Positions 6,391-12,898 of a stretch of DNA of 32,000 nucleotides are shown piece by piece. Numbering within the stretch: the first letter of the stretch is position 1; each line of letters starts with the position of its first letter. The position numbers and the translations under genes are program-made. The notes beneath the pieces were generated by a model, which worked only from the letters and a program-made list of their open reading frames with translations, ran no database searches and had not been told where the DNA came from. This stretch comes from Candidatus Methylomirabilis limnetica (GTDB taxonomy: Bacteria; Methylomirabilota; Methylomirabilia; Methylomirabilales; Methylomirabilaceae), in contig NZ_NVQC01000013.1 in NCBI RefSeq assembly GCF_003044035.1, positions 90,001-122,000 on the forward strand. The letters are read 5' to 3'.

Positions 6391-6653
6391 CGGGGGTCCT
6401 CCGATTACGCCAGATCCCTTTCATGTACTCGGTTCGGCATGGGATTACTGTAGCAGAGCTATAGGGAAAGAACAAGGACGCTGGAGAAGGGGACCCTTAG
6501 TGGTCTGTTTCACAATTACGGTCACATATCCGTTCGTGGTGAGCAGTTCGACAGGCTCACCACAGGCTTGTCGAACCATGAACGGGGAGGCCACCCTTCG
6601 ACTGGCTCAGGGCGAACGGATTCGTGGGCATAGTTATGAAATGCGGTACTTAG
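6391..6653 (+). repeat. duplicate of the block upstream of gmd (paralogue of 11241-11480)
   Basis: Colinear, high identity by eye. This copy has an extra 23 bp (agttcgacaggctcaccacaggc). It contains the hairpin ccgttcgtgg..ccatgaacgg and the motif cccttcgactggctcagggcgaacgg. Confidence 0.85.
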
Positions 6654-6700
6654 GCATCGTCAAAGAATAACATGTACATATTCATGATCCGAAAAATGCA

Positions 6701-6745
6701 CAAACCCCCTCTTTCCCCCTTTCGAAAGGGGGATGAAGGGGGTAG
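6701..6745. repeat. solo REP-like hairpin unit
   Basis: A perfect 18-bp palindrome ccccctttcgaaaggggg lies at 6715-6732 with C-run and G-run shoulders. It belongs to the same family as the hairpins in the MITE and at 19913-19985, 21851-21897 and 23493-23605. Confidence 0.7.
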
Positions 6746-6757
6746 ATGTAAATGTTA

Positions 6758-6913
6758 TTACTCAGAGCATACAATAGCTTGCCTCCCCCTTTAGCAAAGG
6801 GGGGTAAGGGGGGTTTTGAACTATCGGTAAAACCCCCTCAATCCCCCTTTTAGAAAGGGGGAAGTTGCTGGAGATGTTGTGCAAGAGTGCAATCTAGTTA
6901 ATGCTCCCCGTAA
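6758..6913 (+). mobile_element. 156-bp MITE, copy 2
   Basis: Same length and termini as copy 1 (250-405). TA lies on both sides (6756-6757, 6914-6915). Confidence 0.75.
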
Positions 6914-6940
6914 TAATTGTTGACGCCTCCTTAGTCTCGG

Positions 6941-7365
6941 AGGGGCGCCAAACAAAGCTATTTCTGGGTAACATCGAGGCCCGACGCGATTGGGGGTTTG
7001 CGCCGGAGTATGTGGAGGGGATGTGGCTAATGCTCTAGCAGGAAGCACCGTGTGACCTGGTCTTCGGAACCGGAGAGACGCATTCAGTTCAGGAGTTTGT
7101 GGAGGAGGCCTTCGGCTATGTCAACCTGGACTGGCGGGAGTATGTGGCGGAGGACTCGCGCTACTTATGGCCGACCGAGGTCCCGATCCTGCAAGCTGAT
7201 CTCTCCGAGGCCAAGCGACGCCTCGGATGGGAGCCAGGGGTCACGTTCCTGGATCTGGTCCGGATCATGATGGACGCCGATCTCAATGCCGCAGGTCTGC
7301 CCGCGCCAGGGCAGGGGACGCGGTGCCTGACCGATGGTCGGTTGGCGTGGCTCAGGAAGCCGTGA
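6941..7365 (+). pseudogene. gmd: GDP-mannose 4,6-dehydratase 3' fragment (about the last 140 codons) with an in-frame stop
   Basis: Colinear with 12283-12703 of the intact gene. TAG at 7036-7038 stands where the intact copy has CAG. It ends at the same ..LAWLRKP-TGA (7363-7365). Confidence 0.85.
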
Positions 7366-7429
7366 TGGGAGGTTACACAATTCAGCTCGTCAGGTCTTTT
7401 GCGCTCAGTGTCGCACGGCCTGATCCTCG

Positions 7430-7669
7430 TTAGATCTGATCCAGAAGTTCGAAATAGCGGTCACGACTTATTCCTGCGGTTTTGAGGTTCGTCAAGACGT
7501 GGGTGACAGGCAGCTCGTGCGGGCTTGTTTTGATGACCACAGGGCGTTTCATTCTCGGCTTCGTCAGGATGAGATGGTCTCCCTTTTGGCGCGTAACAAC
7601 TCAGCCATCCAACTCAAAAAGCTTCACGACCTTTTGAAAAGGGAGAGGCGTAATCTTCCGGGAAGTCAT
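7430..7669 (-). pseudogene. hicA: HicA-family toxin gene with TGA replacing the conserved Trp codon
   Basis: My own translation is MTSRKITPLPFQKVVKLFELDG*VVTRQKGDHLILTKP..., an 80-codon frame. The stop (plus-strand tca at 7601-7603) falls where HicA/YcfA proteins have G-W/F before the RQKGSH motif. The gene starts 10 nt after the hicB stop. Confidence 0.65.
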
Positions 7670-7678
7670 TGGTGGGGC

Positions 7679-9964: not shown

Positions 9965-9986
9965 TAACTACTCTGACCCCTAACTA

Positions 9987-10147
9987 CTCCGAAGCCAAGC
10001 GACGCCTCGTGGGAACCCGGGGTCACGTTCCGGGACCTGGTCAGGATCATGATGGACGCCGACCTCGATGCCGCGGGCCTAACCGCGCAAGGGCAGGGGA
10101 AGCGGTGCCTTACCGATGGTCGGCTGGACTGGCTCAGGAGACCGTGA
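9987..10147 (+). pseudogene. gmd: gmd 3' ~160-bp fragment
   Basis: Colinear with 12541-12703, with a 2-nt deletion after ..cgcctcg. It ends at the same TGA context (10145-10147). Confidence 0.8.
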
Positions 10148-10224
10148 TGGCGTACAACGGGTATAGGGGCGATTCGGTGGGCTAGTGAGGCAGTAGGAAG
10201 GCGGAAGGATCCCGATATCCAGGA

Positions 10225-10806
10225 CTAGGCGAGCACCTCATCCACCTGGATCTCAAACCCCACCAAGACCGACGATCGAGCTCTTTCCCCATGGCCGAAG
10301 CGCCCAATCAGACGATAACTCCCTTGCTCTAAGGCAAACACCTCTATCGTTCCCCCCTCCCAATCTACGATCCAATATTCGCCCACGCCGCATTGCTCAT
10401 ACAGCGCCTTTTTCTCAACATGGTCTCGTCGCCACGTCCCTGGCGAGACGACTTCAACGATCAGATCAGGTGCTCCGCGAATCTGGTCCTGAATGATCTC
10501 TTGTCTGGCATGTGAGACATAGACGATATCGGGTTGCACGACCCGCCGTGGTGTCAGGACGACATCCAAAGGCGCAAGTAAGACTTCACCCAATTGAGGT
10601 ATGGACACAAATTGAGCCAGCAGGCGAGCCACACGGAAAGAGATTCTCTGGTGCTGTGCAACCGGCGAAGGCGTCATGACGAGATCTCCTTCCCATAGTT
10701 CGGTCGGTTGATTCGTCTCAGTCTTCTCAGCGAGCAGTTCGTTGTACGTCCACACTCGCTTTCCCTGTAAAGCCTTTGTCGCCATTGTGGTCACCTCCTC
10801 CGCCAC
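10225..10806 (-). CDS. Uma2-family (DUF820) PD-(D/E)xK endonuclease-like protein
   Basis: YNELLA...ELWEGDLVMTPSPVAQHQRISFRVARLL..VVQPDIVYV..APDLIVEVVSPGTWRRDHVEKKALYEQCGVGEYWIVD is the canonical Uma2 pattern, including the D..EVxS..K catalytic-like motif. Confidence 0.85.
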   Translation of the reverse strand: MAEEVTTMATKALQGKRVWTYNELLAEKTETNQPTELWEGDLVMTPSPVAQHQRISFRVARLLAQFVSIPQLGEVLLAPLDVVLTPRRVVQPDIVYVSHARQEIIQDQIRGAPDLIVEVVSPGTWRRDHVEKKALYEQCGVGEYWIVDWEGGTIEVFALEQGSYRLIGRFGHGERARSSVLVGFEIQVDEVLA

Positions 10807-11240
10807 TCACCAACCCTCACCCTGCGAGAGCATGCTTGGGCGAGCCCATTCGGCATCAAAGCAGCTTACGACGGATCGGCCAGTCCCTGGACGGCTCTAC
10901 GGCCTTAGACATCAGAGGACCGGCCAGACGTAGGTGAGGTTACTCCTAGCCTCTCTGTACCACATAGAGGTGACGGCCGTCAAGCAGGACGCCGCGCACC
11001 CCAACGTCAACGACACACGTTCTTCCACACCCGGATACCCTCCCGTTAGGAGCCACAGTAGCCGATGTACTGCACGCCTTCTTGGGTTTAGCCGATCCTT
11101 TTCGCCCATCGTCGCACGGCTCGGTCAACCGTCTGGGCATCAGGCCATGGGAAGACGGGCGAACGTCATGATCTTACCGGCATAACGGAGAGCCTCCCTA
11201 CTGGGCCGCAAAGCAGGCCCACTCATGCCGGCCCGCATTC

Positions 11241-11480
11241 CGGGAGTCCTCCGATTGCGCCAGATCCCTTTCATGTGTTCGGTGCGGCATGGTATTACTG
11301 TAACAGAGCTATGGGGAAAGAACAAGGACGCGGGAGAGGGGGAGCCTTCGTGGTCTGTTTCACAATTACGGTCACGTATCCGTTCGTGGTGAGCTTGTCG
11401 AACCATGAACGAGGAGGCCACCCTTCGACTGGCTCAGGGTGAACGGATTCATGGGCATAGTTATGAAATGCTGTACTTAG
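11241..11480 (+). repeat. block upstream of intact gmd, duplicated at 6391-6653
   Basis: See 6391-6653. It ends 183 bp before the gmd start codon. Confidence 0.85.
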
Positions 11481-11662
11481 TCGCGGAGAGGCGACGGGGC
11501 CCTTAGCTGACCGACGTGTTGTCTTGACATGGGGGTCCACTTCAGGCACGCTGTAGCAACCGGATGGTCCCGCCTGCCGGCGAAGAGGGCCAGTTCTGTA
11601 CGATGAGGATTCAGGGGGCTACCGCTAACGGCTCCATCGGACGCGCAACAAGGAGACCCCAT

Positions 11663-12703
11663 ATGCCAACCGCGATCATCACCGGAATCACCGGGCAAGA
11701 CGGCTCGTACCTGGCCGAGCTACTGCTCGCGAAGGGCTACACGGTCCACGGGCTGATCCGGCGGGCCAGTACGTTCCATACGGAGCGGATCGAGCATCTC
11801 TACCAGGATCCGCACGACCCTCTAGCCCGCATCGTCCTGCACTATGGCGATCTCTCCGATTCAAGCCAGCTCACGAACCTGTTCTATGAGGTCCGGCCAG
11901 ATGAGGTCTATCACCTGGGGGCGCAAAGCCATGTGCGAGTGAGCTTCGACATGCCGGACTACACCGGAGACATCACTGGGCTCGGCGCAGTCCGGTTACT
12001 GGAGGCGATCCGTAAGAGCGGGGTGGGGTGCCGGATCTACCAGGCCTCTAGCAGTGAGATGTATGGGGACGCCCCCGCGCCCCAGAACGAGCAGAGCCGC
12101 TTCCAACCGCGCAGCCCCTACGCGGCCGCCAAGCTCTATGCTTACTGGATGGTACGCAATTACCGCGAAGGATACGGCCTCTTCGCCTGTAACGGCATTA
12201 TGTTCAACCATGAGTCGCCTCGGCGGGGGGAGACCTTCGTGACACGGAAGATTACGCGAGCCGTGTCCGCCATCCTCGCCGGGCGGCAGAAGACGCTGTT
12301 TCTGGGCAACCTCGAGGCTCGACGCGATTGGGGGTTTGCGCCGGAGTACGTCGAGGGGATGTGGCTGATGCTCCAGCAGGAAGCACCGTGTGACCTGGTC
12401 TTCGGGACAGGGGAGACCCATTCGGTGCGAGAGTTCGTGGAGGAGGCGTTCGGCTATGTCAACCTGGACTGGCGGGAGTATGTGGCGGAGGACCCGCGCT
12501 ACTTACGCCCGACCGAGGTCCCGCTCCTGCTGGCCGATCCCTCCGAGGCCAAGCGGCGGCTCGGATGGGAGCCCGGGATCACGTTCCGGGATCTGGTCCG
12601 AATCATGATGGACGCCGACCTGGAGGCCGCAGGTCTGCCCGCACCAGGGGAGGGGAAGCGGTGCCTTACCGATGGTCGGTTGGCGTGGCTCAGGAAGCCG
12701 TGA
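11663..12703 (+). CDS. gmd: GDP-mannose 4,6-dehydratase
   Basis: [26 protein letters not shown] (Rossmann GxxGxxG), SSSEMYG and [12 protein letters not shown] (the SDR Y-xxx-K) are present. AGGAGA at 11651-11656 precedes ATG 11663. The 11564 start in the ORF track adds 33 non-homologous residues. Confidence 0.95.
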
Positions 12704-12758
12704 AGGGGGCTACGCGATCGGCTTGGCCTGATCCACGACGAAGGGATCATATGTGGTT

Positions 12759-12898
12759 GCTTGACAGCGGCCCCCGAATGCAGGAACGCTCCCCATCAAG
12801 TAGAGCCTAGTCATATGGAGCGGACTGCGAGAAGTTACGGTTCGTGGAACCAGAGACGATAGAAGTAGAGCGGGTCGCGTAAGCTCGTTTCAGCGACT
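12759..12898 (+). repeat. paralogue of the window-start locus (194-246 + 408-470 + 840-868), lacking the MITE and the nucleotidyltransferase gene
   Basis: The block gcttgaca..cgctccccatcaagtagagcctag / tatggagcggactgcgag.agttacggttcgtggaa.cagagacgatagaagtagagcgggtc / gcgtaagc.cgtttcagcgact is shared. The unoccupied MITE site is at 12811-12814. The deletion junction relative to 471-839 is at 12876/12877. Confidence 0.8.

Follow-up and report, generated by a model that had tools for sequence, protein, structure and literature searches.

The 32,000-nt window analysed here comes from Candidatus Methylomirabilis limnetica. Its left part holds an array of gmd (GDP-mannose 4,6-dehydratase) copies and relics, alternating with decayed transposon-like repeats, assigned below to the TIRtrons, and with toxin-antitoxin (TA) modules. 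Coordinates are positions in the window; negative values lie left of it on the source contig, which was retrieved via the window proteins and extended the sequence 9.46 kb leftward. For five window proteins (including Gmd, GcvT, GcvPA, a FAD-dependent oxidoreductase and AlaS), GenBank has identical entries from this organism, among them PTL36712.1 (Gmd) and PTL36719.1, and a 152-kb ENA contig matches the window at 99.8% identity. Conserved core genes lie right of ~13.6 kb (FAD reductase, YceI, methyltransferases, type III polyketide synthase (PKS), gcvTHP, recA, pilT, recX, alaS), and the variable region holding the array lies left of that point. The locus forms the variable margin of a polysaccharide (GDP-sugar) gene region beside conserved core genes. 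A literature search returned nothing on this locus, nor on TA islands in Methylomirabilis.

The gmd copies and the TIRtrons between them

Repeats within the window were tested by self-BLASTN. The gmd-related features are:

11663-12703, plus strand: intact gmd (gmdR), GDP-mannose 4,6-dehydratase, 346 aa, identical to PTL36712.1
6944-7365, plus: gmd relic 1, 3' 420 bp of the gene, in-frame TAG at 7036-7038
8809-8860, plus: gmd relic 2, last 52-54 bp of the gene; 92.3% identical to 12652-12703, E 3e-14
9987-10147, plus: gmd relic 3, 3' 161-164 bp; 85.3% identical to 12541-12703, E 4e-42
11232-11480, plus: gmd upstream block, the intergenic/promoter region of the intact copy
6311-6653, plus: copy of the upstream block; 6381-6653 is 84.2% identical to 11232-11480, E 2e-65
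12928-12997, plus: partial, diverged copy of the upstream block, 71% identical to 11201-11270
13005-13104, plus: segment that directly follows the cut-off end of gmdL, by sequence match to the left contig

The intact gene matches Pfam GDP_Man_Dehyd (PF16363) over its full length (profile positions 1-332, E 3.5e-135). Relic 1 aligns over 6957-7376 with 12295-12713 at 89.8% identity (E 3e-153), and its open reading frame (ORF) at 7099-7365 matches PF16363 positions 287-332. An earlier note on this DNA, made from the letters alone, had described the intact gmd, three same-strand 3' relics, a duplicated upstream block and a paralogy of the window start. All of these were recovered by self-BLASTN with E-values from 1e-12 to 1e-153, and the in-frame TAG it had read in the 6941-7365 fragment is present. 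Its suggestion of another gmd copy just left of the window did not hold: a DUF433/DUF5615 pair lies immediately there, and the gmd copies are 7-9 kb away.

These more distant copies are a second full-length gene, gmdL (~-9.5 to -8.7 kb; 369 aa by gene call, 88% identical to gmdR), and a fifth relic of 425 bp (~-7.8 to -7.4 kb) preceded by a copy of the upstream block. Counting these, the stretch from ~-9.5 to 12.7 kb has at least six gmd copies or relics, all on one strand, and the full genes gmdL and gmdR form its two ends. Between gmdL with the fifth-relic region and the window are found a TIRtron copy, an ISL3 transposase pseudogene, a GT4 glycosyltransferase, a 424-aa glycan protein and further TA pairs. 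The ISL3-family transposase, likely a pseudogene, is split into ORFs of 251 and 140 aa (~-4705 to -3451; L089:4759-6013) and stands between the TIRtron copy and the glycosyltransferase genes.

The homology of gmdL stops directly after ACCGATGG, 28 bp short of the usual stop, and gmdL continues with the sequence of 13005-13104. Therefore, gmdR carries a 329-bp insertion relative to gmdL (12676-13004), consisting of the last 28 bp of the ORF, a remnant of a nucleotidyltransferase (MNT) cassette and the partial block copy. Both gmdL (~-8802; L089:~662) and the third gmd copy of the related contig L120 (L120:11468) break exactly after ACCGATGG, with unrelated sequence following in each. The end of ACCGATGG is the centre of a small palindrome, ACCGA-TGG-TCGGT (ACCGATGGTCGGT), in the gmd tail.

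The repeats that the earlier note had called insertion sequence (IS)-like are copies of a 1.04-kb unit with ~21-bp terminal inverted repeats (TIRs) starting GGGGTCAG. The copies in the window are:

872-1306, plus: TIRtron c1, 5' 435 bp only, in-frame stops
2223-3265, plus: TIRtron c2, full length (~1.04 kb), two frameshifts
4416-5549, plus: TIRtron c3, with a copy of a miniature inverted-repeat transposable element (MITE) inside at 4802-4923
8265-8808, plus: TIRtron c4, 5' ~545 bp, fused to relic 2
9762-9967, plus: TIRtron c5, internally deleted to 63 bp of the left end and 142 bp of the right end; a duplicated 16-mer follows
2190-2240, 8240-8270, 5541-5575 and 9958-9986: tandem TIR-end duplications, also seen at L096:1515-1580 and L003 (reverse complement) 3965-4000

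With one further copy left of the window, there are six in ~16 kb, with the same orientation throughout and pairwise identities of 84-96%. None is intact: each is inactivated by frameshift, stop, truncation, internal deletion or MITE insertion, and two have a MITE insertion in common. The termini of c2 (2226-3265) read GGGGTCAGGCATGCCTTATT(G/A) on the left and CAATAAGGCAAGCCTGACCCC on the right and carry the published GGGGWSAS motif. After correction of frameshifts, the unit encodes a protein of 325 aa with a Y1_Tnp domain (PF01797, E 3e-11). Against NCBIfam REP_Tyr_transpos this protein scores 65.7 bits, below the 80-bit cut-off, so it is RAYT-like and not a RAYT equivalog. Its C-terminal half has no Pfam match; many of the listed full-length 325-aa homologues (46-65% identity) carry precomputed PF08299 (Bac_DnaA_C) together with PF01797. 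In total, 7,768 full-length 325-aa homologues were found at E <= 1e-10, one of them 95% identical and situated on a 1,044-bp contig. Many homologues lie on contigs of ~1.04 kb, which suggests active multicopy elements elsewhere. Near-identical termini, ATGGGGTCAGGCATGCCTTATTG ... CCTGACCCCAT, are present in L104:3900-5000 and L114:2440-3620, where the proteins are 67-68% identical and belong to metagenome-assembled genomes of other lineages. Another homologue (P0135) occupies one fixed site in all ten places shown. The tandem partial TIR-end duplications listed above lie outside several copies, with AATGGGGTCAGG... on the left and TGACCCCTA(A)C(TACTC) on the right; footprints, slippage or nicking are possible origins.

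The published TIRtron/TIRYT class (Di Nocera et al. 2013, PMC3733652; subclass 2.1 of Quentin et al. 2018, PMC6006769) has a Y1 transposase, a C-terminal helix-turn-helix (HTH) of Bac_DnaA_C or HTH_23/28 type and TIRs with GGGGWSAS. Judged by its Y1 HUH domain and its ~21-bp TIRs, which begin GGGGTCAG and fit GGGGWSAS, the IS-like element belongs to the TIRtrons, a kind already known; for the HTH, the Bac_DnaA_C score comes from its homologues. Unlike published TIRtrons, however, those found here form an array of six dead copies in ~16 kb, in one orientation, with cargo between them and tandem TIR-end duplications, and such arrays are not part of the published descriptions.

As the earlier note had observed, two relic junctions touch the element. 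Relic 2 is joined at 8809 to the interior of c4 through GGGGGARGMGGTG (11 of 13 nt identical), and relic 3 begins 20 bp past the right TIR of c5, after the duplicated 16-mer, at a CTCCGA microhomology (9967-9987). The block copy at 6311-6653 is fused to relic 1 through the same deletion junction as in the fifth relic, and the MNT remnant downstream of gmdR is a deletion with a 7-bp overlap. The relics are 54 to 425 bp long and irregular at their left ends. Internal gmd deletions also occur in relatives, where the block or the 5' start is kept along with the 3' end: L096 (~11535-12514 lost), L100 (11858-12107 lost) and copies 3 and 4 of L120.

Divergence was measured on codon-aligned pairs of gmd copies. 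The copies differ from one another by 8-15%, whereas strains differ by less than 1%. The ratio of non-synonymous to synonymous substitution (dN/dS) is 0.09-0.27 across all pairs, and changes are mainly synonymous or at third positions: by codon position, 7/7/30 between gmdR and relic 1, 7/10/38 between gmdR and relic 5, and 10/9/37 between relics 1 and 5. Therefore, most of the divergence arose while these sequences were functional genes. Relics 1 and 5 have an internal deletion junction in common, block...GGCG joined to CCAAACAAAGCT, which removes ~11500-12285. In their first ~140 bp the two group together (8 sites), whereas 17 informative sites in the last ~250 bp place relic 1 with gmdR and relic 5 with gmdL. 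By this site pattern the relics are mosaics, and functional alleles must have contributed to them by gene conversion or recombination. The protein database also contains many gmd ORFs of the same clade that are truncated. A scan of genome contigs with gmd returned only relatives from many phyla at no more than 74% identity, of no use for synteny.

Cargo modules and variation among related contigs

The modules between the gmd copies and TIRtrons, and the features around them, are:

195-247, plus: promoter/leader segment of the MNT module, 84.9% identical to 12759-12811, with a TTGACA-type motif
537-845, plus: MNT-type nucleotidyltransferase, 102 aa by gene call, ORF open from 393; NTP_transf_2/Polbeta
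1392-1941, minus: mazF/PemK-like toxin (1392-1739) and small antitoxin; PemK/MazF match
3477-4121, minus: two-gene module, 101 and 111 aa, no Pfam or NCBIfam match
5578-6230, minus: DUF5615 (PIN-like)/DUF433 pair, family matches
7433-7945, minus: hicA pseudogene (7433-7669, W23stop) and intact hicB-like gene (7679-7945)
8929-9729, plus: vapBC, with vapB at 8975-9277 (MazE/AbrB-like antitoxin), vapC (PIN_3) at 9274-9729 and a promoter-like site at 8929-8958
10225-10806, minus: Uma2-family putative endonuclease, E 4e-34
12759-12903, plus: MNT cassette remnant, ORF body deleted with a 7-bp overlap, without MITE
13162-13545, plus: rmlC remnant, only the N-terminal ~55 aa recognisable, weak match
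246-407, unstranded: MITE-like element, 162 bp, imperfect TIRs TATTAC..AGCAT and two CCCCCTTT..AAAGGGGG hairpins
6754-6915, unstranded: MITE copy between the upstream block and relic 1
13587-18409, minus: conserved core cluster of FAD-dependent oxidoreductase, YceI, class I methyltransferase, type III polyketide synthase (chalcone-synthase-like) and CMAS-like methyltransferase

The cargo consists mostly of type II TA pairs, plus Uma2, MNT and some glycosyltransferase genes. The assignments made in the earlier note (MNT, hicBA, vapBC, Uma2, rmlC remnant) are borne out by family matches, with the qualification that the rmlC match is weak and hicA is a pseudogene. Since hicA carries the W23stop here and the related contig L093 encodes an intact 79-aa HicA, the toxin is inactivated in the present genome. 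By its sequence features, the pair at 3477-4121 may be a RelE/ParE-like toxin with its antitoxin. No cargo module is a duplicate of another, and the DUF433 copies have a mutual amino-acid identity of just 33-44%. The MNT module and its remnant are paralogous: 195-247, 407-470 and 833-866 correspond to 12759-12811, 12813-12876 and 12870-12903 at 85-97% identity. This pair also gives a filled and an empty MITE site, CCTAGTTAT[MITE]ATGGAGC at 246-407 vs CCTAGTCATATGGAGC at 12811/12813. Single hairpin units of the MITE type also occur in core intergenic regions (19943, 21855 and 23557).

Independent assemblies are colinear with the window over 4916-9973, 6269-10911 and from 5578 onward (L088/L091, L092, L093), at 99.2-99.9% identity, and the order across all three relics is reproduced in ERZ4201065, ERZ27287891 and JGI 3300037497, which derive from other samples. 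This answers the concern about mis-assembly that the earlier note had raised. Comparison with relatives, which it had set as a test, revealed no single fixed arrangement; the breakpoints lie inside TIRtron copies or gmd tails. In L094, the 3477-4121 pair is joined to vapBC via a hybrid TIRtron and 4808-8265 is absent; the hybrid makes one switch, from c3-type to c4-type sequence, 90-110 bp inside the element. In L096/L097, the upstream block and gmd promoter are followed by the final 190 bp of gmd, by vapBC and by a TIRtron whose left end is intact; their vapBC is 99.3% identical to that of the window, their flanks just 90-93%. L117 has hicAB, a 281-bp gmd relic and the same Uma2 gene, without the intervening vapBC or TIRtron. 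L100 (core genes 89-92% identical) carries a TIRtron fragment, a different vapBC and an internally deleted gmd beside the reductase. L120 contains five same-strand gmd copies or relics in 10 kb, with TIRtron pieces between them and a different TA pair after each, and the c1-mazEF unit is conserved in L003-L006 and L120. L096/L097, L117 and L120 show module orders other than that of the window. The locus is a strain-variable hotspot rich in TA and nuclease genes, in support of the hotspot proposed in the earlier note.

Two relics of related contigs have ends close together on the gmd map. In L003 (reverse complement ~3700-3895) a gmd relic ends near 12427, beside a TIRtron left end, and the relic at L117:13562-13840 starts near 12415, after sequence which in M. 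limnetica immediately precedes the left end of a TIRtron. A single insertion into gmd may have left both relics; their ends overlap by ~13 bp, however, and the flanks misfit a simple insertion.

The minus-strand cluster at 13587-18409 directly adjoins the array on the right and is kept in L100. This cluster may yield an alkylresorcinol- or alkylpyrone-type lipid. Rfam found no family at the gathering threshold in the whole 32 kb, and no glycine riboswitch was seen upstream of gcvT (18410-18727).

The shared gmd end and the origin of the array

All five tail-bearing gmd copies align up to CCGTGA(T/A)GG, which contains the stop codon, and then diverge; the common stop context noted earlier is thus real. 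The normal C terminus of this gmd clade, CL(T/A)..RLAWLR(K/R)P followed by the stop, is also present in genes of ordinary polysaccharide clusters, where an epimerase-family gene, probably fcl, lies directly 3' of gmd. Because the tail is the natural gene end, copies having only the gene in common lose homology there. On these alignments, the shared boundary is the natural C terminus of the gmd clade and not an attachment site. In particular pairs the homology goes further: relic 2 matches the gmd ends of L100 and L096 for ~60-100 bp beyond the stop, and relic 1 matches copy 4 of L120 for ~40 bp beyond it. The survey of the sequence after the gmd tail, by exact-pattern metagenome scan, comprised five loci.

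No integrase was found by Pfam among the called genes from ~-9.5 to 22.7 kb, and the ORFs from there to 32 kb look, by eye, like core genes (recA, pilT, recX, alaS). By inspection, the gmd tail has no GTTRRRY/RYYYAAC core. At the far cassette ends no post-gmd core recurs, and GTAAGACGCGATAGTAC-like matches occur only at gmdL, the 13007 copy and relic 2. The region has no tRNA and no Rfam element. The cargo modules are distributed over both strands, and there is a strong promoter match (11/12) in front of vapBC. An attC or att site at the gmd tail was rejected based on the natural clade C terminus, the lack of an integron core and the lack of a recurrent far-end motif. A role of the tail or block as terminator or non-coding RNA was also rejected: neither an Rfam family nor a tRNA is found, and the tail carries nothing that resembles a terminator.

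We consider it fairly probable that this edge of the glycan locus was shaped by repeated import or duplication of gmd DNA, by homologous recombination between gmd and TIRtron repeats, and by trimming through microhomology joins and internal deletions. What the sequences show directly is the repeats, their junctions, their mosaicism, the population variants and, among the genes searched, the lack of a recombinase. Segments bearing gmd would have been imported or duplicated several times, mostly from diverged yet functional alleles. The redundant copies would then decay, most losing the interior and retaining the upstream block and/or the 3' end, with two cut by microhomology joins to a TIRtron. 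The resulting same-orientation series of gmd relics and dead TIRtrons would act as portable homology, where RecA-type recombination between direct repeats could delete, duplicate or exchange the intervening modules, both within a genome and between genomes of the population. One possible route is loop-out and then Campbell-type re-integration. Partial copies would in this way come to lie downstream of the full gmdL, as is observed, and gene conversion would keep the relics mosaic. TA modules might persist by addiction and probably confine deletions to the gmd interior, which is our proposed reason for the survival of the relic ends. Szekeres and colleagues reportedly proposed in 2007 that TA loci guard against large deletions. 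The order of events, the route of import and this protective role are what we infer from the present arrangement.

Several points weigh against this explanation. Horizontal import of modules is read from dN/dS and mosaicism, with no donor and no circular or transfer intermediate identified, and functional gmd paralogues that co-existed for long and were truncated recently would yield a similar dN/dS. Short metagenomic variant contigs could in principle be chimeric, although L094 speaks against this, as it switches cleanly between copies that are 87% identical. The two independent breaks at the palindrome centre hint at a structure- or enzyme-directed cut, which plain homologous recombination leaves unexplained. 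Moreover, every relic in the genome that retains gmd sequence retains the 3' end, an outcome not expected from random decay.

Another possibility might be serial tandem duplication in situ of a unit of block, gmd, cargo and TIRtron, followed by decay and independent TA insertions. The single orientation and the recurring order of block, gmd relic, cargo and TIRtron would fit, and the common deletion junction of relics 1 and 5 shows that a copy with the deletion was duplicated at least once. We nevertheless regard this as unlikely, since the low dN/dS, even between relics 1 and 5, misfits neutral decay, the copies are far more diverged than strains are, the cargo between conserved flanks is non-homologous, and vapBC is 99.3% identical between lineages with 90-93% identical flanks. 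Of the earlier note's proposal of serial duplication and recombination through the IS copies, the recombination part stands, given the switch inside the element in L094; simple duplication is an incomplete account, in view of the dN/dS values, the mosaics and the non-duplicate cargo. Its alternative, repeated cassette insertion at the gmd stop by a site-specific system (integron-like, or as with phage 21/e14 at icd), is very improbable and largely refuted. Five copies do lose homology within a few bases of the stop, with different cargo 65-460 bp on; yet this boundary is the natural C terminus, homology extends 40-100 bp past it in particular pairs, and no integrase (~-9.5 to 32 kb), no integron-type core (by inspection) and no repeated core at the far cassette ends was found. 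Cargo on both strands, a vapBC with its own promoter, and relics of 54-425 bp with irregular left ends also disagree with such a system.

Capture driven by the TIRtron might have worked in an ISCR1-like manner, the HUH Y1 transposase mobilising adjacent DNA or nicking hairpins and TIR-like motifs, so that circles of gmd, cargo and TIRtron re-insert by homology and yield the alternating pattern. A TIRtron adjoins two of the four distinct left junctions found for gmd relics, the cargo always stops on its right at the sharp left terminus of a TIRtron, partial TIR termini stand in tandem at several ends, intact 325-aa homologues exist (many on ~1.04-kb contigs), and two gmd copies are broken at the centre of ACCGA-TGG-TCGGT. 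The copies of the array are all pseudogenes, however, and 84-96% identical, so they are old; one family member sits at a single fixed site in many samples, like a domesticated RAYT; and TIRYT transposition is without experimental knowledge (PMC3733652, PMC6006769). The junctions resemble microhomology deletions and not precise element ends, and relics 1 and 5, L096, L100 and copies 3 and 4 of L120 are simple internal deletions without a TIRtron. The capture reading is quite unlikely; the breaks at the palindrome, the tandem TIR ends and the 3' ends kept by all relics lend some weight to HUH nicking, short of establishing it. A related, decidedly speculative idea is an integrase-free cassette system, where gmd and TIRtron repeats would serve as linkers by which TA and defence modules are gained, lost and exchanged in a RecA-dependent way across a Methylomirabilis population, with capture seeded by TIRYT nicking at ACCGA-TGG-TCGGT and GGGGTCAG motifs. 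Finally, an assembly artefact, i.e. repeats collapsed or mis-joined in a metagenome-derived genome, has hardly any probability left. The repeats are dense and 85-96% identical, and sister-sample assemblies break inside c3; against this, independent samples reproduce the order across three relics, a divergence of 8-15% is too great for a k-mer assembler to confuse, and analogous arrays occur in related genomes.

Comparison with known systems and significance

O-antigen and capsule loci are hypervariable islands that contain IS elements and pseudogene relics and are remodelled where homologous recombination strikes shared sugar-nucleotide genes or those of the conserved flanks. The present locus is like them in its glycan edge (gmd, rmlC remnant, GT4), its core genes on one side, strain-variable content, breakpoints in shared genes or repeats and a mosaic gmd. 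It is unlike them in having at least six same-strand gmd copies or relics in tandem, with mostly TA modules between them instead of alternative glycan genes, and an analogous stack occurs in L120.

Toleman and colleagues are said to have described in 2006 complex class 1 integrons built by ISCR1, with variable cargo and partial duplication of the 3'-conserved segment. As an analogy only, the array resembles these in that a 5'-truncated conserved segment, an HUH-family element and unrelated cargo alternate; re-insertion of circles by homology would be a plausible origin. ISCR elements (IS91-like) have a Y2 rolling-circle transposase, oriIS and terIS, and no inverted repeats; the element found here, in contrast, is Y1 and TIR-bounded, all its copies are dead and there is no integron platform, so it falls outside the ISCR elements. 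Integron arrays have IntI and attI, attC sites with a GTTRRRY core, and cassettes that are mostly promoterless and on one strand. The likeness to Vibrio superintegrons lies in the many unrelated type II TA modules in a variable array with repeats between them. Here, however, IntI and attC are absent, the repeats are gene relics and dead transposons, and the cargo lies on both strands with its own promoters. Phage 21 and e14 insert in the 3' end of icd and bring a replacement 3' end, and the array likewise has partial 3' gene copies downstream of a full copy (gmdL). It differs from such insertions by the lack of a recombinase and of a constant att core, the irregular relic lengths and the second full gene at the far end.

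TIRtrons, TA-rich variable islands and recombination at glycan loci are already known. The tandem stack of gmd relics acting as linkers, recurrent across Methylomirabilis genomes, is an unusual variant. Annotators should be aware that the numerous ORFs labelled "partial GDP-mannose dehydratase" in Methylomirabilis data are genuine relics, not noise from assembly. The locus places the TIRtrons, a family without known biology, in a concrete, repeatable and testable genomic context, and an integrase-free cassette system, if true, would give the uncharacterised TIRYT family its first functional setting. In this uncultured NC10 methanotroph, a variable island appears to be built and reshuffled without a dedicated recombinase, with gmd relics and dead transposons supplying the homology. 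The recurrence of such stacks in related genomes suggests a property of the lineage and not a one-off accident.

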